Of a stretch of DNA of 64,000 nt, positions 9,961 through 63,806 are shown piece by piece. The notes under the pieces are model-generated. The model did no database searches and had not been told where the DNA came from. It saw only the letters and a program-made list of their open reading frames with translations. A program made the position numbers and the translations under genes. Location of the stretch: NCBI RefSeq assembly GCF_056746865.1, contig NZ_CM163382.1; one strand, 5' to 3'. Positions within the stretch are counted from its first letter, which is position 1, and every line of letters starts with the position of its first letter.

Positions 9961-11466
9961 TAAAGCTGTGGTGATGACCCAAAACGCAACGCCTGTCAGT
10001 GAGGATGAAATGGTGAAAAGCGGACAGCATCAGTAACGGAAGTATCTTAGCGGGTACGAAAATGGCAGGATCGTGACATTGACAGAATATCTCCTGATCA
10101 TCCTGAATGACTGCAGTTGCTGTAGAAAAGTAAGCTGTCTCCACCCACGGCACCACTTAACAGGCATTCCGTAACTTCCCCCAGACTTACTATGACGCAT
10201 TATCGGTGCACTGAAAACGGGAGAGTGCGCTTAAAACCGCAGACCGCATGCGGGTGTTACTGCATGACAGTCTGGCCGTATTGTGAGATGTCGGCAGGAA
10301 CCGATGTCCGCGCAGGGGGGAACTTCCTGCAGTACCTGACGCTTCAAATGGTATTAACCGTAGGGTGTTGTTGGTTCCGGATCGCGGAAATGGGAGCACA
10401 GGTCTGCTACGGGGTGTACCTCTGACAGTATATCCGGCTCGCTCATCTGACAGCCTCTCTCCCGGAAAAGACCAAAAATGAGATCGTCTCCTCAACAGCA
10501 GAGAAGAGGTCTTGACAGACAGGCTATATTGCATACGATTTATGAAGAAAAAGACAGCAAATATGGAGGTTATAGCGGAGAATACCCTACGAAATTCCTA
10601 TGAAAAACGATTGAAAAAAATATCAAATTCGATTCGTTTTTATATGCTTTTTGGGAGCGTGGCGATGACGAACTGTTGCATGTGCAGAGGAGAATGCACC
10701 CGGAAGCACCAGAATCATCCAGAAAGGCAGAACGATTACGCATCAAACCAGGAGACAGCAATATCAAGGTAATATACTGATTTAAAATGAATTTACAGCA
10801 ATACGTGAAAACATTTTTTACTTAAAGGAGACAGATGCGCTGAAGAGAGTGCAAGTATTTTTATATAAAAATGAGAAGTTTACGGGATGTATATCCGGCA
10901 CACTATGACCGGAGAATATCAGTCAAGCTTAAAAAGACAATAAATACAGTGAGTTAAATACACAGAGAAAACGTAGTATCAGAGGGTACATCTTACAACA
11001 GAGACTGAATTTCCGGTTTTTCATAACCGGCGCATTCCGGAAAGTGCAGGCGGCCCGGAGGTTTTCTGACGCCACTACCTGGTAGATTGTTCTGTACATC
11101 ATGTACGGAGGTTTTTGTTTGCTTTTTTAAAATCTGCAAATGTGAGAAAAGCAGGTGAGGTGTATTGTGGGAAAGGAACTGGATGATATCTGCACCAGCT
11201 GTCCGTATATCGATGCTGTAAAACGGCACAAACAACAGCTCGGTGCCATAGAGGAATATACACAGTGGTTAAAAAAAGAACCACGGGCATCTTATTTTTT
11301 TCTGTTCCAGCTGTATACCCGCATTCACAATACATTTTTCTCCCAAAAGCAACAACTCCCGTTCACTCCCGGTGGCACTCACTGCCCGGAACCTGATGTC
11401 ACCCTTCGGGACTTAACGCTTTCCCCTGGCTACCACAGTGATTATGCCCCTCAACCCATTCCGGAG

Positions 11467-12318
11467 ATGGACAGTTCTGCTGTTGTTCCCCCAACTAATG
11501 AAAACACCTCGCCTCCGGAAGATACTCCCGACAACACTCCGGCCGGAGGCAATACCGGACAAGCGGAAAAGACCAGAAACGCAGGACTCACACCCATTCC
11601 TGAAAAACGTTCAGGAATGCCCCCGGAACATCTGCGGTTTGCCACGGGGTTTCCATCGCAACCGAAGATTGCCGGTCCCAGAGAAAAGCCGATGCGCACC
11701 GTGCATCCGGATAAAATCTACCGTGAAATTATATGGTTCTGCTCCAGTTACCTGCTGAAATCCGGACCAGAGGCTACGAGGACGATTATCAACTCAGTAT
11801 TCTCTGAATGGGCCAGCATAAACAATGATTACCCCTCCCCCTTTTCGTGGGTGGACAGCAGGGACAGTGAACAGTGTGACTGGTTATGGAACGCCATGCA
11901 GGTCCGGTGTGTGGGAACCCCGCTGAATCCCCTTACCCCGGAGCAGAAATACTGGTTTGCCTGCGCCACGTTTGATAACTGGGAGGGCTGGAATGAGCAA
12001 CAGGTACAGTTTTTACTGGAAAGTAATCCCAGACGGAACAGAGCGAAGTTTACGCAGGTCTCCTTCCAGGCCCCCAGGATTCAGCATAAAGCGATTCTTC
12101 TTGATGAGCTGAAAAGTGCCCGGGAGCAACAAAAAAGGCGTGATGAACGTGCTGATGGTTCCGTCCCTCTGAAACTGTCCGGAAAAATCCACAAACAGCT
12201 TGAAAGTATTGCCCGAAGTCGTGGTGTCCTCCCAAAAAAACTGCTGAATGAAATGATTGAGCAGGCGTACCATGATTTGGTGGCAACCAGGCAGAACAGC
12301 CAAATCGATTCCAGATAA
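11467..12318 (+). CDS. hypothetical protein (Pro/Thr-rich N-terminal region; C-terminal region with ribbon-helix-helix-like segment)
   Basis: ORF 11155..12318 with no ATG before 11467. GGAG precedes ATG 11467. No family recognised. Confidence 0.3.
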   Translation: MDSSAVVPPTNENTSPPEDTPDNTPAGGNTGQAEKTRNAGLTPIPEKRSGMPPEHLRFATGFPSQPKIAGPREKPMRTVHPDKIYREIIWFCSSYLLKSGPEATRTIINSVFSEWASINNDYPSPFSWVDSRDSEQCDWLWNAMQVRCVGTPLNPLTPEQKYWFACATFDNWEGWNEQQVQFLLESNPRRNRAKFTQVSFQAPRIQHKAILLDELKSAREQQKRRDERADGSVPLKLSGKIHKQLESIARSRGVLPKKLLNEMIEQAYHDLVATRQNSQIDSR

Positions 12319-12637: not shown

Positions 12638-12839
12638 TGCAAAATGGCATCTGAATCGATCGCAGTTTGGCATTCGAATCGATCATGATTTGGCATCCAT
12701 CTCCGATCACAGTTTGGCATCACAATCGATCACGATTTGGCATGCTTCCGATCATTGATTGGCATCCTGCCAGTCACTCCGGGAATTAACTCTTTTCACC
12801 ACAGTCTCCATTGCCGTGTTTAAACCAGTGGAGACGTCA

Positions 12840-14405
12840 ATGTCCAGAAAGAGAAAATCCAGGAGCACTATGGAAACCTGTTTTAAGATTCTTCAGCTCA
12901 AGTTCGACAAGAAGCTGACTAACCGTTGTATCGGACTGACGTTACACATCAGCGCCTCAACCGTTTTTGAGGTTCTTGCCCGCTTCAAAGCCTCTTCTCT
13001 GTCATGGCCATTACCTGCTGATATATCCCATGACACGCTGGAGAAACTCATTTTTCCGCCCAAAGACACCTTTGCATCAGAGCTTGTAATGCCTGACATG
13101 TTGTACCTCGATACGGAAATGAGAAAACCAGGTGTGACGCGGCAACTGTTGTGGATGGAATACAAGGCACAGGCGGGTAACAAAGCGATGGGATACTCGC
13201 ACTTCTGCCGTTGCTACCGGGAGTGGAAAAAAACGCGACGTCTCTCCATGCGCCAGGAGCATCGTGCCGGCGAAAAGCTTTTTATCGACTTCTGTGGTCC
13301 TACGGTTCCTGTTATTAATCCGGACACCGGTGAGATACGCCGCGTGGCAATCTTCGTGGCCGTAATGGGGGCGTCCAACTATACCTACGTTGAAGCGTGC
13401 GAAGGTCAGGACATGATGTCATGGTTAAATGCCCACAGCCGTTGCCTGACCTTCCTGGGCGGCGTACCGAAGCTGCTCATCCCCGATAACCTCAGAAGCG
13501 CAGTGAAAAAGGCCGATCGATATGAGCCTGTCATCAACGACAGTTATCAGGCACTGGCTGAGCACTATGGCACGGTTATCATCCCGGCCCGACCACGCAA
13601 ACCTAAAGATAAACCAAAAGCAGAAAACGGCGTCCTCATCGTCGAACGATGGCTTCTTGCCCGCATCCGTAATGAAACCTTCCACACGCTCAGGGCGCTG
13701 AATGCGCGCCTTAGGGAGTTACTGACAGACATGAATAACCGGCCAATGAAGGGGTACGGCAATCAAACCCGTGCAGAACGCTTCCGCATACTGGATGCGC
13801 CAGCACTCTCTCCGCTGCCTCTGGCACCTTATGAATACACGGAATACAAAGCTGTGAAGGTTGGCCCTGACTACCACGTTGAATATGCCCGTCACTGGTA
13901 CTCCGTTCCACACGAACTGGTCGGTCAGCGTCTGTCACTGAAGGCGGGGCAGTCGGTGGTACAGCTCTGGCACAAGGGGCAGTGTGTGGCGCAACATCCG
14001 CGCAGCACACATGAATATAAACACACAACCAATCCGCTTCACATGCCAGAGCGCCACCGGCAGCACGGGACATGGACACCGGAACGCCTGATCGAGCAGG
14101 GAAAACGTACGGGCCCGTCCACAGGCCGGGTGGTTGAATCCATGCTGAAGGCAAAACCCCATCCGGAACTGGCTTATCGTGCAGTTCTGGGGCTGCTGGC
14201 ACTTCAGAAAAAATACGGCCCGGAACGGCTGGAAAAGGCCTGTTACGTTGCCCTGCACTATAACGCCCCTGACAGACGCTTTATCGACAATCTGCTGCGT
14301 CACCATCGGGAGAACCTGGAGCTTCCATTATCCCGCCAGGGCGAACAACATCCGGCATATGCTTCAGAGCATGAAAACCTGCGTGGTCCGGGCTACTACC
14401 ACTGA
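12840..14405 (+). CDS. istA: IS21-family transposase IstA
   Basis: Long ORF with GGAG ribosome-binding site before ATG 12840; lies between IS21-type ends, directly upstream of an IstB-like gene. Confidence 0.7.
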   Translation: MSRKRKSRSTMETCFKILQLKFDKKLTNRCIGLTLHISASTVFEVLARFKASSLSWPLPADISHDTLEKLIFPPKDTFASELVMPDMLYLDTEMRKPGVTRQLLWMEYKAQAGNKAMGYSHFCRCYREWKKTRRLSMRQEHRAGEKLFIDFCGPTVPVINPDTGEIRRVAIFVAVMGASNYTYVEACEGQDMMSWLNAHSRCLTFLGGVPKLLIPDNLRSAVKKADRYEPVINDSYQALAEHYGTVIIPARPRKPKDKPKAENGVLIVERWLLARIRNETFHTLRALNARLRELLTDMNNRPMKGYGNQTRAERFRILDAPALSPLPLAPYEYTEYKAVKVGPDYHVEYARHWYSVPHELVGQRLSLKAGQSVVQLWHKGQCVAQHPRSTHEYKHTTNPLHMPERHRQHGTWTPERLIEQGKRTGPSTGRVVESMLKAKPHPELAYRAVLGLLALQKKYGPERLEKACYVALHYNAPDRRFIDNLLRHHRENLELPLSRQGEQHPAYASEHENLRGPGYYH

Positions 14406-14421
14406 CAGAAGGAACAACAGT

Positions 14422-15177
14422 ATGAGTGATAACCTGTTAAACAAACTGACCCAACTGAAACTCCCGGCGATGGCCGGGAGCCTGATACGGCAGCGGGAAA
14501 CGCCTCAGACCTACGACGAACTGTCGTTCGAGGAAAGGCTGACGCTGCTGGTTGATGACGAGCTTCTGAGCAGGGAAAACAGCCGTGTGGCACGGTTGAG
14601 AAAAAATGCCGGCCTGAAATACCAGGCAACACCGGAAGGGCTGCGCTATCCGGCCTCAAGAGGTCTGCGGGCTGAACAGATGAGAGAACTGCTGAACGGC
14701 CACTACATAACCCACAGGAAAAACCTGCTGATAACCGGTCCGACAGGATGTGGCAAGAGCTGGATAGCCAATGCGCTGGGCGAACAGGCATGTCGACAGA
14801 AACACAGCGTCCGGTACTGTAGAACCGGGCGATTACTGGAACAACTGGCTCAGGGACGTGTTGATGGCAGCTGGCTGAAATATCTGAAACAGTTGCAAAA
14901 AATACAGGTTCTAATCCTGGACGATCTGGGGCTGGAACAGTTAAGTAACGCCCAGTGTAATGACCTTCTGGAGCTCATAGAGGATCGTTACGGACAAAGC
15001 AGCACGATAGTGGTAAGCCAGTTCCCGGTAGATAAATGGCATGGTCTGATGGAGAACCCAACAACAGCAGATGCCATCCTGGACAGACTGGTACATAACT
15101 CACACCGGGTGGTCCTTCAGGGAGAGTCACTGAGGAAAAATCCCCCGGTAGTGGAAAGCAGCGAAAAAACGCGTTAA
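14422..15177 (+). CDS. istB: IS21-family helper ATPase IstB
   Basis: Walker A LITGPTGCGKS and Walker B VLILDDLG motifs; ATG 14422 with AGGAA upstream. Confidence 0.85.
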   Translation: MSDNLLNKLTQLKLPAMAGSLIRQRETPQTYDELSFEERLTLLVDDELLSRENSRVARLRKNAGLKYQATPEGLRYPASRGLRAEQMRELLNGHYITHRKNLLITGPTGCGKSWIANALGEQACRQKHSVRYCRTGRLLEQLAQGRVDGSWLKYLKQLQKIQVLILDDLGLEQLSNAQCNDLLELIEDRYGQSSTIVVSQFPVDKWHGLMENPTTADAILDRLVHNSHRVVLQGESLRKNPPVVESSEKTR

Positions 15178-15276
15178 AAAGCGGTAGAAAAAGTTAAGTT
15201 CCCGGTTGATCGAATGGATGCGAATCGCTGATCGGACTTCGATGCCAATCCGTGATCGAATAGAGCGGAATACGCA

Positions 15277-16137: not shown

Positions 16138-18534
16138 ATGCACGAAAAGAACATCGCCCTGCTTTGTGATGAAGCCGACCGACTTTTGCAACTGAACATT
16201 AATCTGCTCCGGCAAATGGTTGAGGAGCCAGATGTGTTATCTGACAGTAAGAACGAAAACAGACTGCTTTTTGATAAACAGAAAGCACTGAAAAGAATTG
16301 AGGAGCTGGAGGGCGAACAAATCAAAACCGCCCGCAGGGAGATGGTGCTGGCTGTTGTCGGCACGATGAAAGCAGGCAAATCAACCACCATCAACGCCAT
16401 TGTGGGGCAGGAAATTCTGCCTAACCGTAACCGCCCCATGACCTCTGTACCGACGCTCATCCGCCACGTTCCCGGAAAAACTGAGCCGGTTCTCCATCTG
16501 GAACATATTCAGCCTGTCCGCAATTTATTAATCACACTGCAGGAAAAACTCGCCACCCCGGCAGGACAGCAGGTCGCACAGACCCTGCAGCAAACCGGGG
16601 ATACCCGCGAACTGCTGGATATTCTGACGGATGATGGCTGGCTCAAAAATGAATACCACGGGGAGGAGGAAATCTTTACCGGACTGGCATCGTTAAACGA
16701 TCTGGTTCGTCTTGCTGCGGCAATGGGGACTGAATTTCCTTTTGATGAATACGCAGAAGTGCAGAAACTGCCGGTGATCGACGTGGAATTCAGCCATCTG
16801 GTGGGGATGGATGCATGCCAGGGAACACTCACACTGCTGGATACCCCCGGCCCTAATGAGGCCGGACAACCGCAGATGGAAGTGATGATGCGGGATCAAC
16901 TGCAGAAAGCCTCTGCGGTTCTGGCTGTGATGGATTACACCCAGATGAACTCAAAAGCGGATGAAGACGTCCGTAAAGAGCTTAATGCCATTGCTGACGT
17001 ATCAGCCGGCCGCCTGTTTGTACTGGTCAATAAATTTGATGAGAAAGACCGCAATGGCGATGGGGCAGATGCCGTACGCCAGAAAGTTCCGGCAATGCTG
17101 AACAGCGATGTGCTGCCCGCCTCCCGCGTTTATCCCGGATCCTCACGCCAGGCATACCTGGCTAACCGTGCGCTTCATGAGTTACGGAAAAACGGAACCC
17201 TTCCTGTTGATGAAGCCTGGGTCGATGATTTTATCAGAGGTGCCTTCGGTTGCATGAAAAAAGAATACGTCTGTAAAGACAGTGAACTGGCAACTGAAGG
17301 GGCGACAGACCTGTGGGAAGGCTCACTTATCGATCAACTGATAACGGAAGTCATACAGAGCTCACATTCCAGAGCTGCGGCACTGGCGGTTGACTCTGCC
17401 GCCGCAAAACTGATGCAGAATGCAGAAAATATCAGTGAATACCTGTTGTTACGCCATCAGGGGCTACAGCAAAGCATTCAGTCACTGCAGTCGCATATCA
17501 CCAGCCTGCTTGCGGATATCCGGGAAATCGCGGACTGTCAGGAGCAGATGACCACTGATGTCAGAATGGCCATGGAGGAGATCGATACTAAAACCCGGGA
17601 ATTACTGACGGGGGTCTGCACCTCACTGGAAGAGGAGCTGAATGACTATTTCAGAAGCGGTAAACGCAAAGAACAGCAAATGCTGGAGGAAGAAGACGCA
17701 GAACAACGAAGGTCTCAGTCCGGATTATGGGGGAAAATTTCTCAATGGTCCGGTATCAACAACCAGGGCCGGGAGGATTACAGGAAACGAGATTTTGCCC
17801 CGGACAGCCCCGAAATAAAATTCAGTGATCGCAGGGAAGCCCTTGAACTGATGACGCAAATCGAATCGACCGTGACCAGCCTGCACCGTGAGGCTGAAGC
17901 ACAGTTCCGGCCTGAGCTGGAGAAAATCGTCAGCGGGATTGAAACAGGTTTTCGTGGCACGGCCCTGTACGCCACAGAAAACATTGCCGGTCGCATCAAT
18001 GCCCGCCTGGAGGATGAGGGCTTTACCGTAAAAATCAGTTTTCCGGCAGTCAGCCAGTTACAGACCCGGCTCGCGGTAAAAATAAATCTGAGTGCGCTTA
18101 TGGAGGAAAGAACGGAGACCGTCACCCGTCGCCGTCGGCAGAGTGGCGTATGGGGAACCGTTTGTCGATGGTTTGGCACCAGTGACCTGGGCTGGGAAAA
18201 CTATGACGAGGATGTGAGTCGCAGCGTGATCAATATCAACAAGGTCAGAGAGGAAGTTATGTCACTGACCCGGGCATATTTCGGGGAGCTGCAGGCATCC
18301 ATTGAGCAGGATATTAACCAGCCCGTCCGCCAGGAAATCGATGCCTTTTTCTGCGCATTCAGGGAGAAAGTTGAACAACTGCGTAACACGCTGATTCAGA
18401 GCTCTGAAGATCATAAACGCGATCAGCAGGCGCAGGAACGGCTTACCGGGCGACTTCAGGCATTAAATGAAAGGGTTCCTGAGCTCATTACTGACAGTAA
18501 GGCGCTGAGGGAAGAGCTGGAGACAATGCTGTGA
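16138..18534 (+). CDS. dynamin-like GTPase, CrfC/YjdA-like (798 aa)
   Basis: G1 P-loop GTMKAGKST, G2 Thr in MTSVPT, G3 DTPG, G4 NKFD, in dynamin order, followed by a long helical region. N-terminal block MVLAVVGTMKAGKSTTINAIVGQEILPNRNRPMT closely matches recalled E. coli CrfC. AGGAAGG ribosome-binding site. Confidence 0.85.
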   Translation: MHEKNIALLCDEADRLLQLNINLLRQMVEEPDVLSDSKNENRLLFDKQKALKRIEELEGEQIKTARREMVLAVVGTMKAGKSTTINAIVGQEILPNRNRPMTSVPTLIRHVPGKTEPVLHLEHIQPVRNLLITLQEKLATPAGQQVAQTLQQTGDTRELLDILTDDGWLKNEYHGEEEIFTGLASLNDLVRLAAAMGTEFPFDEYAEVQKLPVIDVEFSHLVGMDACQGTLTLLDTPGPNEAGQPQMEVMMRDQLQKASAVLAVMDYTQMNSKADEDVRKELNAIADVSAGRLFVLVNKFDEKDRNGDGADAVRQKVPAMLNSDVLPASRVYPGSSRQAYLANRALHELRKNGTLPVDEAWVDDFIRGAFGCMKKEYVCKDSELATEGATDLWEGSLIDQLITEVIQSSHSRAAALAVDSAAAKLMQNAENISEYLLLRHQGLQQSIQSLQSHITSLLADIREIADCQEQMTTDVRMAMEEIDTKTRELLTGVCTSLEEELNDYFRSGKRKEQQMLEEEDAEQRRSQSGLWGKISQWSGINNQGREDYRKRDFAPDSPEIKFSDRREALELMTQIESTVTSLHREAEAQFRPELEKIVSGIETGFRGTALYATENIAGRINARLEDEGFTVKISFPAVSQLQTRLAVKINLSALMEERTETVTRRRRQSGVWGTVCRWFGTSDLGWENYDEDVSRSVININKVREEVMSLTRAYFGELQASIEQDINQPVRQEIDAFFCAFREKVEQLRNTLIQSSEDHKRDQQAQERLTGRLQALNERVPELITDSKALREELETML

Positions 18535-19436
18535 CTTCACCATTTATTCAACAAATTGCTGATAACCGGGTATGTCAGGTACTCACCTGTCTTCCTGAAA
18601 AATTTGTGGTTGATTTCGCAAACGGAATCGATGTTGCACAGGAGCATATCCGCACGGCCGGAGAGCGCACGTTCTTCCGGCGTTTAAAAGAGGGGCTGAC
18701 CGGCGAAGGCGCTGCACGGCAGAATGCCATCAATGCGTCGCTTGCACAGGGCGTTGAGGCGTCCCTGCGCTGGCTGACGGAGATGACAACGTCACTTGCC
18801 ACCACAAACTACGCGATTACCCGGGTAAACGACAGGGTCAGTTCACTGGTCAGTGATACAGCCAGGCTGGCGCATTATTCCGCAGATACGCGGGAGCAGT
18901 TACTCACCCTGGCCGATCAGGTTCACCATAAACTGAATCATCTTGAAGAAAAACTCCACCGTGTTGACCAGGTTCAGCGGGCGCAGTTACATCTTGAGCA
19001 GATATTCTCATGGTGGAGCGCCGGGCGATATGCGTCATTTTCCCCTGCCGGACGTTGTTATGTGGCACTTGAAGAGCTTCGCTGGGGCGCGTTTGGTGAT
19101 GTGATACGTCAGAGCGAAACAGGCCAGGTTAACCAGCTACTGGATATTCTCAGACATAAAGCATTAACGCAGATGGCACAGGAGAGTGGCGGTAGTGCAA
19201 CCGTGCGTCTGAACACTCTGGACTGGCTTGGTGGTCAGGGCCGGGAGCAGGCAGATAACGAGTGGCATGACGCGATTAACTGGCTGGGAGACTGGTGCAG
19301 TGAAGAGCAGCATCCGGTGATCTGGTCAACCACGCAGGCTGCAGAACACTTACCGGTTCGCATGCCTCGCCTCTGCTCTGCAGAACGCCTCTCTGAAAGT
19401 ATGGTCGATGAAATATTTCAGAAGGGGGCTGCATGA
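18531..19436 (+). CDS. YjcZ-like partner protein of the dynamin-like GTPase (301 aa)
   Basis: GTG start overlaps the upstream stop (ctGTGA); GGAG 10 bp upstream. Size and position mirror the crfC-yjcZ pair; family assignment not verified. Confidence 0.55.
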   Translation: MTSPFIQQIADNRVCQVLTCLPEKFVVDFANGIDVAQEHIRTAGERTFFRRLKEGLTGEGAARQNAINASLAQGVEASLRWLTEMTTSLATTNYAITRVNDRVSSLVSDTARLAHYSADTREQLLTLADQVHHKLNHLEEKLHRVDQVQRAQLHLEQIFSWWSAGRYASFSPAGRCYVALEELRWGAFGDVIRQSETGQVNQLLDILRHKALTQMAQESGGSATVRLNTLDWLGGQGREQADNEWHDAINWLGDWCSEEQHPVIWSTTQAAEHLPVRMPRLCSAERLSESMVDEIFQKGAA

Positions 19437-20503
19437 GTACAGAAATGAAAACGGGGCTGGTGCTGTCCGGTGGCGGGGCGGTGGGCGCTTATCAGGCGGG
19501 AGTGGTTAAGGCACTGGCAGAGTGTGGTACACAGATCAGCATGGTTTCAGGGGCCAGCATTGGCGCATTCAATGGTGCCATTATCGCGGCCTCTCCCGAT
19601 CTGTCAGAAGCTGCCGTACGCCTGGAGGCGCTCTGGGATCATCTGGGGAATAATCAGGTGCTGTCGGTAAACAGATTGGTTTACTTTTCATTGCTGAAAA
19701 AATTGTTCCAGGCAATGAACCTCTGCCAGATCCCCGGACGTGCAGGAGCACTGCTTACGACGCTTCTTCGCCATATATCGACAATCAACGGGTTTGACAA
19801 TCTGATGGCTCAGCCGTTGTTGTCAGATGAGCCCCTGACAGCGCTGATGGATCATTATCTTGATACTGATGCTCTGGCAGACGGGCTACCGCTGTATGTG
19901 TCGCTGTACCCCACAGAAGGGGGCATGCAGGATATTATTGACTGCATTCGTGCTGAACTGGGTGTCGGAACCACGAAAAACGCCGTTTTTCAGCATATCC
20001 AGAGCCTGCCCCGCGGACAGCAGAAAGAGGCTCTGCTTGCGTCAGCCGCGCTGCCCCTGCTGTTCCGTCCCCGTGAGGTTCAGGGGACAATGTTCGGTGA
20101 TGGTGGTATGGGAGGATGGCGAAATATGCAGGGAAATACCCCTGTGACGCCTCTGGTCGATGCCGGATGCAATATGGTGATTGTGACGCATCTGAGTGAG
20201 GGTTCTTTATGGGATCGCCAGGCTTTTCCGGACACCACAATCCTTGAGATCCGTCCCCGGAAAAGGCTGAAATATGCAGGTGATGGTGGCAACAGCGGCG
20301 GTCTGCTCAGTTTTACATCGGCACATACCGACGCCTGGCGTCAGCAGGGCTATGAAGACACGATGCTGGCGATGGAGCATATCCGGAAACCGCTGGCAGC
20401 ACGTCAGGCACTGACCCGGTCAGAGGCGGTATTGCAGAAAAGCCTGGATATAACGGAAGAGGCAGATTTGGCACTGAGAAACGCGATGGCCCGGATTAAA
20501 TAA
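19433..20503 (+). CDS. patatin-like phospholipase (356 aa)
   Basis: Oxyanion motif LSGGGAVGAYQAG, nucleophile elbow G-A-S-I-G (Ser42, nt 19556-19558), catalytic Asp in FGDGG (Asp223, nt 20099-20101). ATG overlaps the upstream stop (gcATGA). Confidence 0.85.
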   Translation: MSTEMKTGLVLSGGGAVGAYQAGVVKALAECGTQISMVSGASIGAFNGAIIAASPDLSEAAVRLEALWDHLGNNQVLSVNRLVYFSLLKKLFQAMNLCQIPGRAGALLTTLLRHISTINGFDNLMAQPLLSDEPLTALMDHYLDTDALADGLPLYVSLYPTEGGMQDIIDCIRAELGVGTTKNAVFQHIQSLPRGQQKEALLASAALPLLFRPREVQGTMFGDGGMGGWRNMQGNTPVTPLVDAGCNMVIVTHLSEGSLWDRQAFPDTTILEIRPRKRLKYAGDGGNSGGLLSFTSAHTDAWRQQGYEDTMLAMEHIRKPLAARQALTRSEAVLQKSLDITEEADLALRNAMARIK

Positions 20504-20836
20504 AGACGCCCCAAAGAAACGCCACCGCCTGTGGTGGTGTTTTTCCTGTCTGGTGTTATTGAAAATATTTTCATATATATATTACCTGAGAGAAAGTTTT
20601 ACCCCTCACCTGTCAATTCACTCACTGGAAATTTAATTATGAAATTACCTGTAAAGTTATTAATGAGCCTTATATCTCTGGTCAGCGTTATTGCACGTGC
20701 CGGGGAATATAAAAATTACAGCCGGGATGAAATAAAATACTGGCGATATACATCATACAAGGGGGGGAAACTTCCGGAAGGTTTCACTGATGAGAAATTT
20801 TCCAGCGCCATTTACAACGGAAGAATATTTACAATG

Positions 20837-21322
20837 AAACGTTTACATACCCTTATGTTATTTCTGGCGGTTCTGTTCACGGGCTTTAACTTTAACGCAG
20901 AAGCGGCTACCGTAAAACAAGCTCTTAGTTGTAACCCGGAAGCCTGGGCTGAACAACCTGGAGCGTGTCCATCAACGTACGAGTTGTACGAAGGTGACGC
21001 TACCTACAAAGCCGCTATCGACAAAGCATTAAAACCGGTCGGACTGAGCGGCATGTTCGGTAAAGGCGGCTATATGGATGGCCCTGGTGGAGGTATCACG
21101 CCAGTAAACATTAACGGTACAGTCTGGTTCCAGGGCGACGGTTGCAAAGCCAATACCTGCGGCTGGGACTTTATCGTAACACTCTATAACCCAAAAACCC
21201 ATGAAGTTGTTGGCTACCGTTACTTTGGTTTAGATGACCCGGCCTACCTGGTTTGGTTCGGTGAAATTGGCGTGCATGAATTCGCGTATCTGGTGAAAAA
21301 CTACGTAGCTGCGGTTAACTAA
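20837..21322 (+). CDS. secreted Ivy-family-like protein (loop CKANTC in place of Ivy CKPHDC)
   Basis: Signal peptide MKRLHTLMLFLAVLFTGFNFNAEA. Mature protein resembles E. coli Ivy in KAA...KGG and CKxxxCG blocks. ORF extends upstream to 20531/20639 with a second signal-like segment, so start is uncertain. AT-rich DNA. Confidence 0.45.
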   Translation, partial: KRLHTLMLFLAVLFTGFNFNAEAATVKQALSCNPEAWAEQPGACPSTYELYEGDATYKAAIDKALKPVGLSGMFGKGGYMDGPGGGITPVNINGTVWFQGDGCKANTCGWDFIVTLYNPKTHEVVGYRYFGLDDPAYLVWFGEIGVHEFAYLVKNYVAAVN

Positions 21323-21337
21323 TTTAAGGAGTCTATC

Positions 21338-21748
21338 ATGAAAACTTTTATCAAAACTTTACTCGTTGCTGTAACTATTCTGTTCTCTGTCTTCGCTACT
21401 GCGAAACAAGTAAAACTGCCAAATAACATCAAATACGTTAATACTACAGAAGCGTTTTCCTGTACCGAAATTGACGGTATGAATTGCCAGACAAAGAATC
21501 AGTTCAACTATAAAGATAACAGCTATGTTTTCGTGCTTGAACGTGGTGGTGCCTGGTGCTACGACTACACTGTCTCGGTAGTTAACCTGAAAACCGGGAA
21601 AGCACAAATGATTGAATACGGGGACAATCAACTGTGCTCAGGTAGCAACAAACCGTTCTTCGAAATCAAAAATGGCGTACCGACGGTAGGAGTCATCGAC
21701 ACATCCGGAAAACCTGTCGTTGTAGCCCAGGACAAACTTAAAATCTAA
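21338..21748 (+). CDS. small secreted Cys-containing protein, unknown function
   Basis: Signal peptide MKTFIKTLLVAVTILFSVFATA; GGAG before the ATG; 15 bp after the previous gene. Confidence 0.5.
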   Translation: MKTFIKTLLVAVTILFSVFATAKQVKLPNNIKYVNTTEAFSCTEIDGMNCQTKNQFNYKDNSYVFVLERGGAWCYDYTVSVVNLKTGKAQMIEYGDNQLCSGSNKPFFEIKNGVPTVGVIDTSGKPVVVAQDKLKI

Positions 21749-22871: not shown

Positions 22872-23351
22872 ATGAAAACCGTTTCTCAGAATACCCCCAC
22901 AATTTATTCAGCTACAACACCAGAGAATAATCCGCCTCAGTTGGTTGCCAGCCTCGTCCCTGATGAACAGCGCATCAGCTTCTGGCCGCAGCATTTTGGC
23001 CTCATTCCACAGTGGGTGACCCTGGAGCCCCGTGTCTTCGGCTGGATGGACCGTCTGTGCGAAGACTACTGCGGTGGTATCTGGAATCTGTACACCCTGA
23101 ACAACGGCGGGGCATTTATGGCACCCGAACCGGATGACGATGATGACGAAACATGGGTACTGTTCAATGCCATGAACGGTAACCGCGCAGAAATGAGCCC
23201 GGAAGCCGCCGGTATTGCCGCCTGTCTGATGACGTACAGTCATCATGCCTGTCGTACGGAGAATTATGCCATGACGGTCCATTATTACCGGTTGCGGGAT
23301 TACGCCCTGCAGCATCCGGAATGCAGCGCCATTATGCGCATCATCGACTGA
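22872..23351 (+). CDS. antirestriction protein, KlcA/ArdB family (YfjX/YeeS-region paralog)
   Basis: 159-aa ORF with acidic stretch PEPDDDDDETW, typical of this family and position. Confidence 0.7.
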   Translation: MKTVSQNTPTIYSATTPENNPPQLVASLVPDEQRISFWPQHFGLIPQWVTLEPRVFGWMDRLCEDYCGGIWNLYTLNNGGAFMAPEPDDDDDETWVLFNAMNGNRAEMSPEAAGIAACLMTYSHHACRTENYAMTVHYYRLRDYALQHPECSAIMRIID

Positions 23352-23843
23352 ATGGAGAGAAGCACAATGCAACAACTTTCCTTTCTGCCCGGAGAGATGA
23401 CGCCCGGCGAGCGCAGCCTCATTCAACGGGCCCTGAAAACCCTGGACCGCCATCTTCATGAACCCGGCGTGGCCTTCACCTCCACCCGTGCAGCACGGGA
23501 ATGGCTGATTCTGAACATGGCGGGACTGGAGCGTGAAGAATTCCGGGTGCTGTATCTGAACAACCAGAATCAGCTGATTGCCGGTGAAACCCTCTTCACC
23601 GGCACCATCAACCGCACGGAAGTCCATCCCCGTGAAGTGATTAAACGCGCCCTGTATCACAATGCCGCTGCTGTGGTGCTGGCACACAATCACCCGTCCG
23701 GTGAAGTCACACCCAGCAAGGCAGACCGCCTTATCACGGAACGTCTGGTACAGGCACTGGGCCTGGTGGATATCCGGGTGCCGGACCATCTGATAGTCGG
23801 TGGCAGCCAGGTTTTCTCCTTTGCCGAACATGGTCTGCTTTAA
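23352..23843 (+). CDS. RadC-like JAB/MPN domain protein
   Basis: JAMM motif HNHPSG and upstream E (REVIKRALYHNAAAVVLAHNHPSGEVTPS). Confidence 0.8.
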   Translation: MERSTMQQLSFLPGEMTPGERSLIQRALKTLDRHLHEPGVAFTSTRAAREWLILNMAGLEREEFRVLYLNNQNQLIAGETLFTGTINRTEVHPREVIKRALYHNAAAVVLAHNHPSGEVTPSKADRLITERLVQALGLVDIRVPDHLIVGGSQVFSFAEHGLL

Positions 23844-23905
23844 CCCGTCACAACCACATCACACCTGTTTTCACTTTTATCTTCTGTCTTCAGAGGTATC
23901 CCACT

Positions 23906-24127
23906 ATGAAAATCATCACCCGTGGCGAAGCCATGCGTATTCACCGTCAGCATCCGGCATCCCGTCTTTTTCCGTTCTGTACCGGTAAATACCGCTGGCA
24001 CGGCAGTGCTGAAGCGTATACCGGTCGTGAAGTGCAGGATATTCCCGGTGTGCTGGCCGTGTTTGCTGAACGCCGTAAGGACAGTTTTGGCCCGTATGTC
24101 CGGCTGATGAGCGTCACTCTGAACTGA
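23906..24127 (+). CDS. yeeT: YeeT-family protein (DUF987)
   Basis: MKIITRGEAMRIHRQHPASRLFPFCTGKYRWHGSAEAYTGREVQDIPGVLAVFAERRKDSFGPYVRLMSVTLN. Confidence 0.8.
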   Translation: MKIITRGEAMRIHRQHPASRLFPFCTGKYRWHGSAEAYTGREVQDIPGVLAVFAERRKDSFGPYVRLMSVTLN

Positions 24128-24206
24128 GTCAGTAAGGGCATTCTGATGAGCAGAATTATCGCCATTACCGGACCGTTCTTAACCGATTTTCTGTAAGGAT
24201 TTTATC

Positions 24207-24575
24207 GTGTCAGACACACTCCCCGGGACAACACTTCCCGACGACAATCACGACCGCCCCTGGTGGGGGCTGCCCTGCACCGTGACGCCCTGTTTCGGGG
24301 CACGTCTGGTGCAGGAGGGTAACCGGTTGCATTACCTTGCCGACCGCGCCGGTATCAGAGGCCTGTTCAGCGATGCAGATGCGTACCACCTGGACCAGGC
24401 CTTTCCGCTGCTGATGAAACAACTGGAACTCATGCTCACCAGCGGTGAACTGAATCCCCGCCATCAGCATACCGTCACGCTGTATGCAAAAGGGCTGACC
24501 TGCAAAGCCGATACCCTCAGCAGTTGTGGTTACGTTTATCTGGCTGTTTATCCGACGCCCGAAATGAAAAATTAA
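24207..24575 (+). CDS. cbeA: CbeA/YeeU-family antitoxin (type IV toxin-antitoxin, cytoskeleton-bundling)
   Basis: 122-aa ORF matching the YeeU family in its conserved position upstream of cbtA. Confidence 0.8.
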   Translation: MSDTLPGTTLPDDNHDRPWWGLPCTVTPCFGARLVQEGNRLHYLADRAGIRGLFSDADAYHLDQAFPLLMKQLELMLTSGELNPRHQHTVTLYAKGLTCKADTLSSCGYVYLAVYPTPEMKN

Positions 24576-24663
24576 CTCTCCAGAATAGCCTTCTGCTACG
24601 GCCTGGTGTTTTCACCACGCCACTTTTCCATTTTTATATCTGCATATCAGGAAAATCTTCAGT

Positions 24664-25037
24664 ATGAAAACATTACCTGTATTACCCGGGCAGGCGGCCA
24701 GTTCTCGCCCGTCTCCTGTTGAAATCTGGCAGATACTGCTGTCCCGACTGCTGGACCAGCACTATGGCCTCACACTGAATGACACACCTTTTGCCGATGA
24801 ACGTGTGATTGAGCAGCATATTGAGGCAGGCATTTCACTGTGTGATGCGGTGAACTTTCTCGTGGAAAAATACGCGCTGGTGCTACCGACCAGCCGGGAT
24901 TCAGCGCCTGTACCCGCTCTCAGTTAATAAACAGCATCGATATCCTCCGGGCTCGCAGGGCGACCGGCCTGATGACCCGCGACAATTACAGAACGGTAAA
25001 TAACATTACCCTGGGTAAGTATCCGGAGGCGAAATGA
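24664..25037 (+). pseudogene. cbtA: CbtA/YeeV-family toxin gene with a 1-bp deletion (frameshift)
   Basis: N-terminal 80 aa match CbtA, then the frame breaks near 24883 (gtgctaccgac where gtgcgtaccgac is expected). The canonical C-terminus INSIDILRARRATGLMTRDNYRTVNNITLGKYPEAK is present in the +1 frame, ending at 25037. Confidence 0.7.
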
Positions 25038-25228
25038 TGACACTGGAAGCCGACAGCGTTAACGTACAGGCGCTGGATATGGGGCACATTGTCGTTGACA
25101 TTGATGGTGTTAATATCACTGAACTGATTAATAAGGCCGCTGAAAACGGTTATTCACTCCGCGTGGTGGATGACCGTGACTCTACCGAAACACCGGCAAC
25201 TTATGCCAGCCCTCACCAGTTGCTGTAA
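25034..25228 (+). CDS. yeeW: YeeW-family protein
   Basis: 64-aa ORF MMTLEADSVNVQALDMGHIVVDIDGVNITELINKAAENGYSLRVVDDRD. Confidence 0.7.
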   Translation: MMTLEADSVNVQALDMGHIVVDIDGVNITELINKAAENGYSLRVVDDRDSTETPATYASPHQLL

Positions 25229-25384
25229 GACAATGCAGTGATGCAGGGTATAGTGCCATTAACCACAGAAACAGCACTGTTGTCCTGTATTAAGCAGGCA
25301 AGAGAAGATGTCCTTACCCTGCGCCATCTGCAGCTTCTGCACCAGAACCGGTGAATCTCACTCAACAGGCTTCATTTCCCCTGA

Positions 25385-25415
25385 CGCCAGCCTGAATACA
25401 GCTGGCGTTTTCATT
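25385..25415 (+). terminator. rho-independent terminator downstream of yeeW
   Basis: cgccagc / gctggcg stem followed by ttttcattt. Confidence 0.55.
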
Positions 25416-25612
25416 TATAAACAGAAAGGAAAACCGATAATAATGGAATGGACGCCCCGACCATGAAGCAACGGTAGGATATTACTGATAAACCTTCCAG
25501 TGGAGGTGCGTTATGGCCGTTTTAACGATTAGCATTGACCTGACAAAAAATGAATTCCAAATCCACGGTCTGGGTAGGAACAGAAAAATCTAAGCTCAGA
25601 AAACGGATTAAA

Positions 25613-25785
25613 GTAAGCGTCAACGGAGCACCGTATTGACGCTTATTTATTGGTGAGAACTACGTTCCATGGCAGGAGTTCGTCAACACGGTTGGAGGGC
25701 CATTCCGGCAGTATGCTCAGAATATGGCGCAGATACGCTTCCGGATCGATACCGTTCAGACGGCAGGTGCCTGCTTTTCCGGCAA
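25613..25785 (-). mobile_element. IS66-family remnant: terminal repeat plus last ~40 codons of a TnpC (yoeD-like)
   Basis: GTAAGCGTCAACGG terminus at 25613. Minus-strand translation of 25653-25780 gives ...GIDPEAYLRHILSILPEWPSNRVDELLPWNVVLTNK, an IS66 TnpC C-terminus distinct from the 7245-9682 copy. Confidence 0.6.
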
Positions 25786-25799
25786 CAAGCAGGAATCTC

Positions 25800-26025
25800 A
25801 GCGCTGAAGCAGGAATTAGAGGTAAAAACGCCCTACCGGGCCATGAATCACCCGGTCATTGGAGTAGTAACCAAAGCAGATTTAGCCAGCATGGAACAAA
25901 TATCTTTGGTGAAAAGTTGGTTACGGGAAGCTGGAGCGCACAACGTGTTAGTAACCAGTGCAGTTAATAACAATGGAGTTACAGAACTTTTTGCCTTGCT
26001 GCATACAGAAGAAGGCTGTTGTTAA
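25800..26025 (+). pseudogene. EutP/PduV-like GTPase fragment (yoeF-like)
   Basis: C-terminal-like segment NHPVIGVVTKADLASMEQISLVKSWLREAGAHNVLVTSAVNNNG with no credible N-terminus. Confidence 0.35.
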
Positions 26026-34156: not shown

Positions 34157-34422
34157 GGTCATTCTCCTTTACGGTGATAACCGTCGCGTAAGCAAAAAAT
34201 TGCCCCATTTTTTTGGATTCCTCAGCGACAACAACTGTCGATTTTTAGTAAATATCTATCCGGTACGAAGCCCGGCCTCTTGGTATGAATGATTGGTTTG
34301 AAGCAAAAAATAACCGACGCTGATGAAACGTCGGTTTTTAGTCATTTTTTGACAGCGGCGCATTGTGCCTAAATGGGGGGGAAATGACAAGAGAATGAGA
34401 GGCTTGTCATAATAATTTTTCT

Positions 34423-37089: not shown

Positions 37090-37140
37090 ATGACACGCGT
37101 TCAATTTAAACACCACCATCATCACCATCATCCTGACTAG
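37090..37140 (+). CDS. hisL: his operon leader peptide (MTRVQFKHHHHHHHPD)
   Basis: 16-codon ORF with seven consecutive His codons, read directly from the sequence. Confidence 0.95.
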   Translation: MTRVQFKHHHHHHHPD

Positions 37141-37205
37141 TCTTTCAGGCGATGTGTGCTGGAAGACATTCAGATCTTCCAGTGGTACATGAACGCATGA
37201 GAAAG

Positions 37206-37240
37206 CCCCCGGAAGATCACCTTCCGGGGGCTTTTTTATT
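37206..37240 (+). terminator. his attenuator terminator
   Basis: cccccggaag / cttccggggg stem followed by cttttttatt. Confidence 0.9.
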
Positions 37241-63508: not shown

Positions 63509-63520
63509 CACGCTACCGCC
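63509..63520 (-). promoter_or_regulatory. ops element (GGCGGTAGCGTG on the minus strand) within the JUMPstart region upstream of rmlB
   Basis: Plus strand reads cacgctaccgcc at 63509-63520, the reverse complement of the RfaH-dependent ops consensus, in the galF-rmlB intergenic leader. Confidence 0.85.
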
Positions 63521-63806
63521 CCTGGCTTTACAGCTACCAGAGCACTACATGCATGTCTACGATGTGACGAGCGTTACCCACTCGCGCTAAACCCGAAAAA
63601 TTCAAACGCTAATTGTCTTACCAATCCGCTCTGGAAACAAGGAAAATCCTGGAAAACTTTGACTAAAATCCTATTGCTAAGTCGTTGTTATTCTGATTGT
63701 TTATATAAAACAACGGCAGGAAAATTCGCAACAAATTACTTTCGCCGCTAATCTTCACTGCCGTTATAATTTTCTTATCAACCGTTACATCCGGTCAGAT
63801 TTTCAT

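Follow-up and report, generated by a model that had tools for sequence, protein, structure and literature searches.

A broken toxin gene next to an intact antitoxin gene raises the question of whether the lesion is real, where it came from, and why the antitoxin has outlasted its partner. Such a pair, cbeA-cbtA, lies in the 64,000-nucleotide stretch of Escherichia coli DNA considered here (contig NZ_CM163382.1 of RefSeq assembly GCF_056746865.1), which we refer to as the window. Our analysis makes it very probable that this is a CP4-44-type pair whose toxin gene is an inherited, frameshifted allele, one that is truncated and most likely nontoxic, that most likely arose once, and that is now a common polymorphism.

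The antitoxin half of the pair bears out the initial annotation, which had described cbeA as intact. The gene (yeeU; 24207..24575, plus strand) begins with GTG and encodes a complete 122-aa type IV antitoxin, as judged by its open reading frame, its Pfam domain, and its match to a known structure. Specifically, the protein aligns with positions 1-100 of the 101 in the CbeA_antitoxin profile (PF06154, E = 4.3e-53) and its residues 1-122 align with YeeU, whose structure has been solved (2H28, E = 5e-84). This complete CbeA_antitoxin gene lies immediately upstream of the toxin gene. An exact look-up of the 122-aa protein placed it on at least 1000 contigs, and the cbeA that PGAP annotates in E. 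coli C, O104:H4, KMi025, and SMS-3-5 (WP_001285585.1) is intact.

The genes on either side identify the setting. Upstream on the plus strand are yeeS, which encodes a RadC-like JAB protein (23352-23843), and yeeT, which encodes a DUF987 protein (23906-24127), both assigned by Pfam and by PGAP annotation of near-identical loci. Downstream is yeeW (25034..25228, plus strand), an intact 64-aa gene with the DUF5983 N-terminal domain, recognized by its reading frame, by Pfam, and by PGAP annotation at other loci. The yeeW start codon (ATG) overlaps the stop codon that cbtA originally used. Because yeeW has a GGAGG of its own at 25025-25029, 4 nt upstream of the ATG, translational coupling to cbtA need not be required. 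At every locus that we examined, yeeW contains only the N-terminal domain of DUF5983 and is followed by a DUF957 remnant, here at 25034-25354 for the two together; a 2026 paper has hypothesized that a programmed frameshift joins DUF5983 to an AntiFam-listed domain beside cbtA/cbeA (PMC13294457). The yeeS-yeeT-cbeA-cbtA-yeeW block sits in a CP4-type island that is collinear with K-12 and with 13 other loci, and the locus forms the right end of an E. coli cryptic-prophage island of the CP4-44 type, beside tmaR(yeeX)-yeeA-sbmC-dacD. When we searched with tblastn, there was no second copy of cbtA or cbeA within the 64-kb window.

The toxin gene occupies 24664-25037 on the plus strand when its full frameshifted extent is delimited by alignment to an intact allele. 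As the initial annotation had noted, the CbtA-like reading frame ends after 87 aa, running from an ATG at 24664 to a TAA at 24925-24927 (24664..24927, plus strand), and in the Pfam search its CbtA_toxin match is confined to profile positions 1-73. The product consists of 73 native residues followed by 14 out-of-frame residues. The remainder of the gene, from codon 75 to codon 124 and on through the original TGA, is found in another frame at 24885..25037 (plus strand), where it was recovered by translation, tblastn, and Pfam. With the intact CbtA protein as a tblastn query, we obtained two segments at 100% identity, one placing residues 1-73 at 24664-24882 and the other placing residues 75-124 at 24885-25034. 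The CbtA_toxin profile (PF06755) is split in the same way, its positions 75-112 being matched in the second frame (E = 2.6e-13). Thus no complete CbtA_toxin protein of approximately 124 aa is encoded in a single frame at this locus.

Comparison with an intact allele, which had been proposed as a check, reduces the difference to a single base. Against the cbtA of strain KMi025, the alignment contains one gap and is otherwise identical (374/374 bases); the missing G falls between C24883 and T24884 on the plus strand, agreeing with the suggestion that a G had been lost near 24883. The assembly reads gtgctaccgac at 24880-24890, gcgctggtgctaccgaccagcc over 24874-24895, and GTGCTACC across the deletion site within 24870-24895. 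The lost base corresponds to nucleotide 221 of the intact gene, the second position of codon R74 (CGT). The KMi025 allele encodes a 124-aa protein named CBTA_ECOLI, that is, the K-12 CbtA (WP_000854814.1). The canonical C-terminus had also been placed out of frame by the initial annotation, and correctly so, but the direction given there (+1) needs amending. The 3' remnant lies two positions out of the start frame, since (24885-24664) mod 3 = 2, and therefore a -1 shift on the ribosome, not a +1 shift, would restore the frame. Because a full-length toxin reading frame is absent, the pair cannot be counted as a functional CbtA/CbeA module. The frame is disrupted relative to intact orthologs at the same locus and the lesion is shared by descent with other carriers. 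Judged by its sequence, cbtA in the window is a frameshift pseudogene, a null allele of the CP4-44 toxin.

A scan for minus-strand terminators also picked out a 6-bp inverted repeat, GCTGGT/ACCAGC, at 24876-24894, with the deleted G in its loop. It is speculation, but this position might have favored the deletion. Across 23300-25700, scans for promoters and terminators returned nothing above expectation that is relevant to the cbtA lesion.

Single-base insertions and deletions are the commonest kind of assembly error, and the missing G could in principle be one, in which case the true gene would encode an intact 124-aa CbtA. To evaluate how often the lesion occurs elsewhere, we used a 70-mer centered on the deletion and the corresponding 71-mer containing the G as queries against 5426 complete RefSeq E. 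coli genomes. The deletion 70-mer was present exactly in 1498 of the 5426, all of them independently sequenced, while the intact 71-mer was found exactly in 1784 records of the same set. Carriers of the deletion include O157:H7, O145, O104:H4, O111:H8, E. coli C, SMS-3-5, enterotoxigenic strains, and many animal isolates, and there are finished reference strains among them, such as SMS-3-5, O157:H7, O104:H4, and E. coli C. Nor is the sequence context one that invites error, as the site lies outside any homopolymer and the sole run of five or more bases in cbtA is an A5 at 24866. Furthermore, the deletion is linked in nine of nine carriers to a single-nucleotide polymorphism 360 bp away. On the basis of the population counts and the sequence context, we rejected sequencing error, which we consider exceedingly improbable.

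Other views of the public data give a similar picture. In an evenly spaced sample of the ranked matches, approximately 20 of 60 records had the 374-nt deleted form, and half of these were identical to the window throughout. Among the matches listed, the 831 bases of cbeA-cbtA were found at 100% identity in at least 40 genomes. All nine of the other carriers that we inspected have a cbtA that PGAP labels "frameshifted" next to an intact cbeA, which is the same combination that had been proposed for the window. The exact 87-aa product occurs on at least 1000 public contigs, usually under the name YeeV toxin. The deletion, delG221, is therefore an ordinary, common, inherited allele present in roughly one in four complete E. 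coli genomes, and the lesion is neither private nor recent. The allele appears in more than 1000 public annotations and has the status of a RefSeq pseudogene. Our literature searches (pseudogene, frameshift, truncation, O157) retrieved no paper that describes the cbtA/yeeV frameshift allele specifically; one paper on O157 super-shedders merely lists yeeV among polymorphic genes. Among the CbtA-family representatives clustered at 50% identity (P0046-P0195), there were also many fragmentary or chimeric sequences that stop near residue 74, start near residue 83, or are fused to a neighbor, an indication that cbtA genes in public data are often damaged or miscalled.

How the allele became so common can be approached from the surrounding haplotypes. 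We compared 15 sequences, the window and 14 public loci. All 15 occupy the same chromosomal place and have the same gene order, with yeeS-yeeT-cbeA-cbtA-yeeW first, then remnants of DUF957 and of transposases, a yoeF/EutP remnant, and tmaR(yeeX)-yeeA-sbmC. Over the approximately 1.9 kb that could be aligned from cbeA onward, position 25243 (plus strand) is a G in nine of nine deletion carriers and an A in six of six intact alleles, and the deletion haplotype is far more uniform than the intact alleles among the sampled loci. The perfect linkage between the deletion and G25243 points to a single origin. Most likely, delG221 arose once and was then inherited vertically, and recombination probably spread the haplotype as well; a single mutation event could in this way have entered many lineages. 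The island of KMi025 is 99.5% identical to that of the window over 22 kb and yet has an intact cbtA, and therefore both alleles circulate on the same type of island.

One segment of the window departs from this uniformity. From 23914 to 24182, covering yeeT and the yeeT-cbeA spacer, the haplotype is unlike that of the other deletion carriers aligned there and equals that of ST131 at about a dozen polymorphic sites, with a shared 6-bp insertion at 24130-24135. The pattern indicates a recombination mosaic directly upstream of cbeA.

Even if the deletion is genuine, some full-length toxin might still be made by recoding, either through a programmed -1 ribosomal frameshift or through transcriptional slippage. 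The downstream frame is open from 24846, creating an 82-nt overlap that includes the A5 run at 24866-24870, and the sequence encoding the C-terminus is perfectly preserved. Yet a slippery heptamer of the form X XXY YYZ is absent from the whole cbtA gene, including 24664-24927. Runs that give efficient transcriptional slippage are longer than A5. A shift at the A5 run would, moreover, turn YALVR into IRAGA, losing the near-invariant residues L72 and R74. The preservation of the remnant carries little weight, because it is just 153 nt long and the haplotypes being compared are closely similar. With our scan of cbtA for slippery heptamers and homopolymers having yielded the A5 run only, recoding was rejected; we view it as very improbable.

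The preferred reading, a truncated allele inherited from one event, leads to the question of what the 87-aa product could do. With G221 in codon R74 lost, the reading frame stops after 87 aa. In an alignment of diverse CbtA-family proteins that are 35-60% identical, R74 is near-invariant, and the motif DILRARRATGL (residues 93-103) is among the best conserved, being kept down to about 35-45% identity. A PDB sequence search for CbtA returned no solved relative. The AlphaFold2 model of the intact protein (mean pLDDT 83, pTM 0.74) has helices at 18-34, 46-54, 59-70, 91-101, and 109-116, in agreement with a published model that has a loop at T75-T84 (PMC8828653). Based on these positions, the frameshift sits just after the third main helix. 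The truncated protein lacks R74, the loop at 71-90, and the two C-terminal helices together with DILRARRATGL, while retaining the three N-terminal helices. With the loop, the C-terminal helices, and the motif gone, the 87-aa product is most likely a nontoxic fragment, and a probably unstable one, if sequence conservation and the structural model are a guide.

A different possibility is that the fragment is partly active, binding FtsZ and/or MreB through its N-terminal helices, or that it serves as a modulator, whether attenuated or dominant-negative. In work by Tan et al. from 2011, C-terminal truncations of YeeV reportedly still gave cell elongation. Substitution of R15 or F65 in CbtA abolishes binding to MreB or FtsZ, respectively, and the 87-aa product still has both residues (PMC5624674). 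The start codon, the Shine-Dalgarno sequence, and the reading frame are intact in nine of nine other sampled carriers, the allele is very common (1498/5426 genomes), and residual activity would explain why both the open reading frame and cbeA persist in many lineages. Set against this are the loss of two of five helices together with the best-conserved motif, and the fact that a 264-nt reading frame can persist without selection at such low divergence.

The substitutions found in truncated alleles also weigh against an active fragment. Variants of the 87-aa protein include D40N (418 contigs), I24T/S27T (120 contigs), R15H+D40N, and L38M, among others; D40 is invariant and L38 near-invariant in the CbtA family, and R15, altered in the R15H+D40N variant, is the MreB-contact residue. 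In the 220-nt 5' part of cbtA, the changes observed among nine deletion carriers (A12T, L38Q, and R47C) were all nonsynonymous, whereas the intact alleles had synonymous changes only (Y34Y and P42P). The resulting counts of nonsynonymous versus synonymous changes, 3 versus 0 in carriers and 0 versus 2 in intact alleles, come from few independent substitutions and are not statistically significant. This pattern fits a dead gene, small as the counts are, and we regard an active fragment as unlikely. The 3' remnant of cbtA had zero substitutions among the sampled carriers, and the age of the lesion is consequently not readable from decay.

If cbtA is a null allele of single origin, the persistence of cbeA calls for its own explanation. 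There may have been too little time for the antitoxin gene to decay. Alternatively, cbeA may be useful without its cognate toxin, countering paralogous toxins and other inhibitors of FtsZ. What is known of the antitoxin is compatible with the second option. A passage of PMC5624674 that cites Masuda 2012 states that CbeA neutralizes CbtA by bundling and stabilizing FtsZ and MreB polymers, without binding the toxin, and that it neutralizes other FtsZ inhibitors too. In addition, all three paralogous toxins are neutralized by each of CbeA, YafW, and YfjZ, the cbeA-cbtA operon lacks autoregulation, and deletion of the antitoxins is tolerated (PMC5371832). Since CbeA acts on polymers and neutralizes paralogous toxins, an orphan CbeA could stay useful or harmless. 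Many carriers have further CbtA-family copies elsewhere, in several places per genome; in E. coli C, the cbeA-cbtA locus is the only CbtA-family copy. The little divergence that is seen among carriers makes lack of time equally possible, and we infer that cbeA has been kept for one or both of these reasons.

Variation in cbeA itself among the carriers amounts to three synonymous and two nonsynonymous changes (L62P and L53R), which at most hints that the gene is under constraint. Both of the latter are nonconservative: L62P occurs in the cbeA of O157:H7 (locus L003, 2358-2726) and L53R in that of a poultry isolate (locus L014, 244-612). They could represent early decay of an orphan antitoxin.

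A bolder proposal would be that the toxin-null haplotype, delG221 together with G25243, spread because it was advantageous, with the 87-aa fragment, the orphan CbeA, or both being retained for what they do in their own right. In that case, the fragment might, for example, be an attenuated binder of FtsZ or MreB, and the orphan CbeA might be a general stabilizer of the cytoskeleton against paralogous CbtA-family toxins and division inhibitors of prophages. We think such a history decidedly unlikely, and favor instead a truncated toxin allele that was passed on by descent next to an antitoxin that has had little time to decay, or some use of its own.

Among known systems, the closest counterpart is the CbtA/CbeA (YeeV/YeeU) pair of K-12 CP4-44, which occupies the same locus by tmaR/yeeX-yeeA-sbmC in the same yeeS-yeeT-cbeA-cbtA-yeeW order. 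The K-12 toxin is an inhibitor of FtsZ and MreB, and its antitoxin works against it without toxin binding (PMC5624674, PMC5371832). Save for the missing G, the cbtA of the window agrees at every base with an intact allele coding for the K-12 protein, and CbeA differs by one residue, G108D. The pairs diverge in the frameshift at codon 74 and in their upstream cargo, which in the window consists of DUF932, an antirestriction gene, and a dynamin/YjcZ/patatin module, and in K-12 of flu-yeeR. The sequences that RefSeq lists as "cbtA, frameshifted" in O157:H7, O104:H4, E. coli C, and SMS-3-5 are the same allele as in the window, alike in both the deletion and the linked polymorphism; nothing material distinguishes them, the window differing in its ST131-like yeeT and spacer haplotype. 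YkfI/YafW of CP4-6 and YpjF/YfjZ of CP4-57 belong to the same Pfam families and have the same targets as CbtA/CbeA; they reside at other loci and, in our searches, showed a DNA identity of about 85-93%. The antitoxins of the three systems cross-neutralize each other's toxins (PMC5371832; PMC5624674).

The allele has some bearing on how type IV modules are counted in E. coli, as the yeeX-proximal locus holds this null allele in about a quarter of complete genomes, and its 87-aa reading frame is often labeled a "toxin" by gene callers. For the island in the window, the correct annotation is an orphan cbeA antitoxin with a cbtA pseudogene, and beyond this the lesion has little significance. The frameshift allele could nevertheless serve as a natural control for CbtA toxicity and for roles of CbeA that are independent of the toxin.

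The rest of the island has features of its own. An IS21-family element (istA/istB) lies at 12638-15276, and its insertion site differs from that in the near-identical island of KMi025. In the window, it is within the counterpart of a KMi025 GTPase-family gene (L002 13402-14274) and the dynamin-family gene is intact, whereas in KMi025 it is the dynamin gene that an IS21-family element splits. At 16138-20503, three overlapping genes in an operon take the place of the K-12 flu-yeeR cargo. Their products are a GTPase of the dynamin family (798 aa, Dynamin_N 2.8e-18), a protein resembling YjcZ/RdcB (PF13990, 4e-70), and a phospholipase of the patatin-like type (3e-24). A PADLOC scan of the island's cargo genes gave weak matches only, which for this operon were to LeoBC (8.6e-5) and to a phospholipase effector (1e-4). 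The operon may be a membrane-remodeling or defense module, to judge by its domains. Three further island reading frames, of 263, 136, and 387 aa (20531-21748 and 11155-12318), matched no Pfam or PADLOC family, and their counterparts are annotated by PGAP as hypothetical proteins. To the right of yeeW, positions 25669-26025 contain the yoeF-type remains of a GTPase of the EutP/PduV family (PF10662, profile positions 86-142 only), with a transposase fragment adjacent. This remnant is common to all of the loci examined and forms the decayed right end of the island.

An Rfam scan of the whole window detected no RNA family near cbeA-cbtA. Its matches elsewhere were the STnc240 small RNA at 34303-34377 (minus strand), the his operon leader at 37116-37239 (plus strand), and JUMPstart at 63509-63547 (minus strand). 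Beyond the island, collinearity with KMi025 places the core genes dacD, sbcB, yeeD/E, plaP, yeeY, yeeZ, yefM-yoeB, and the his operon.
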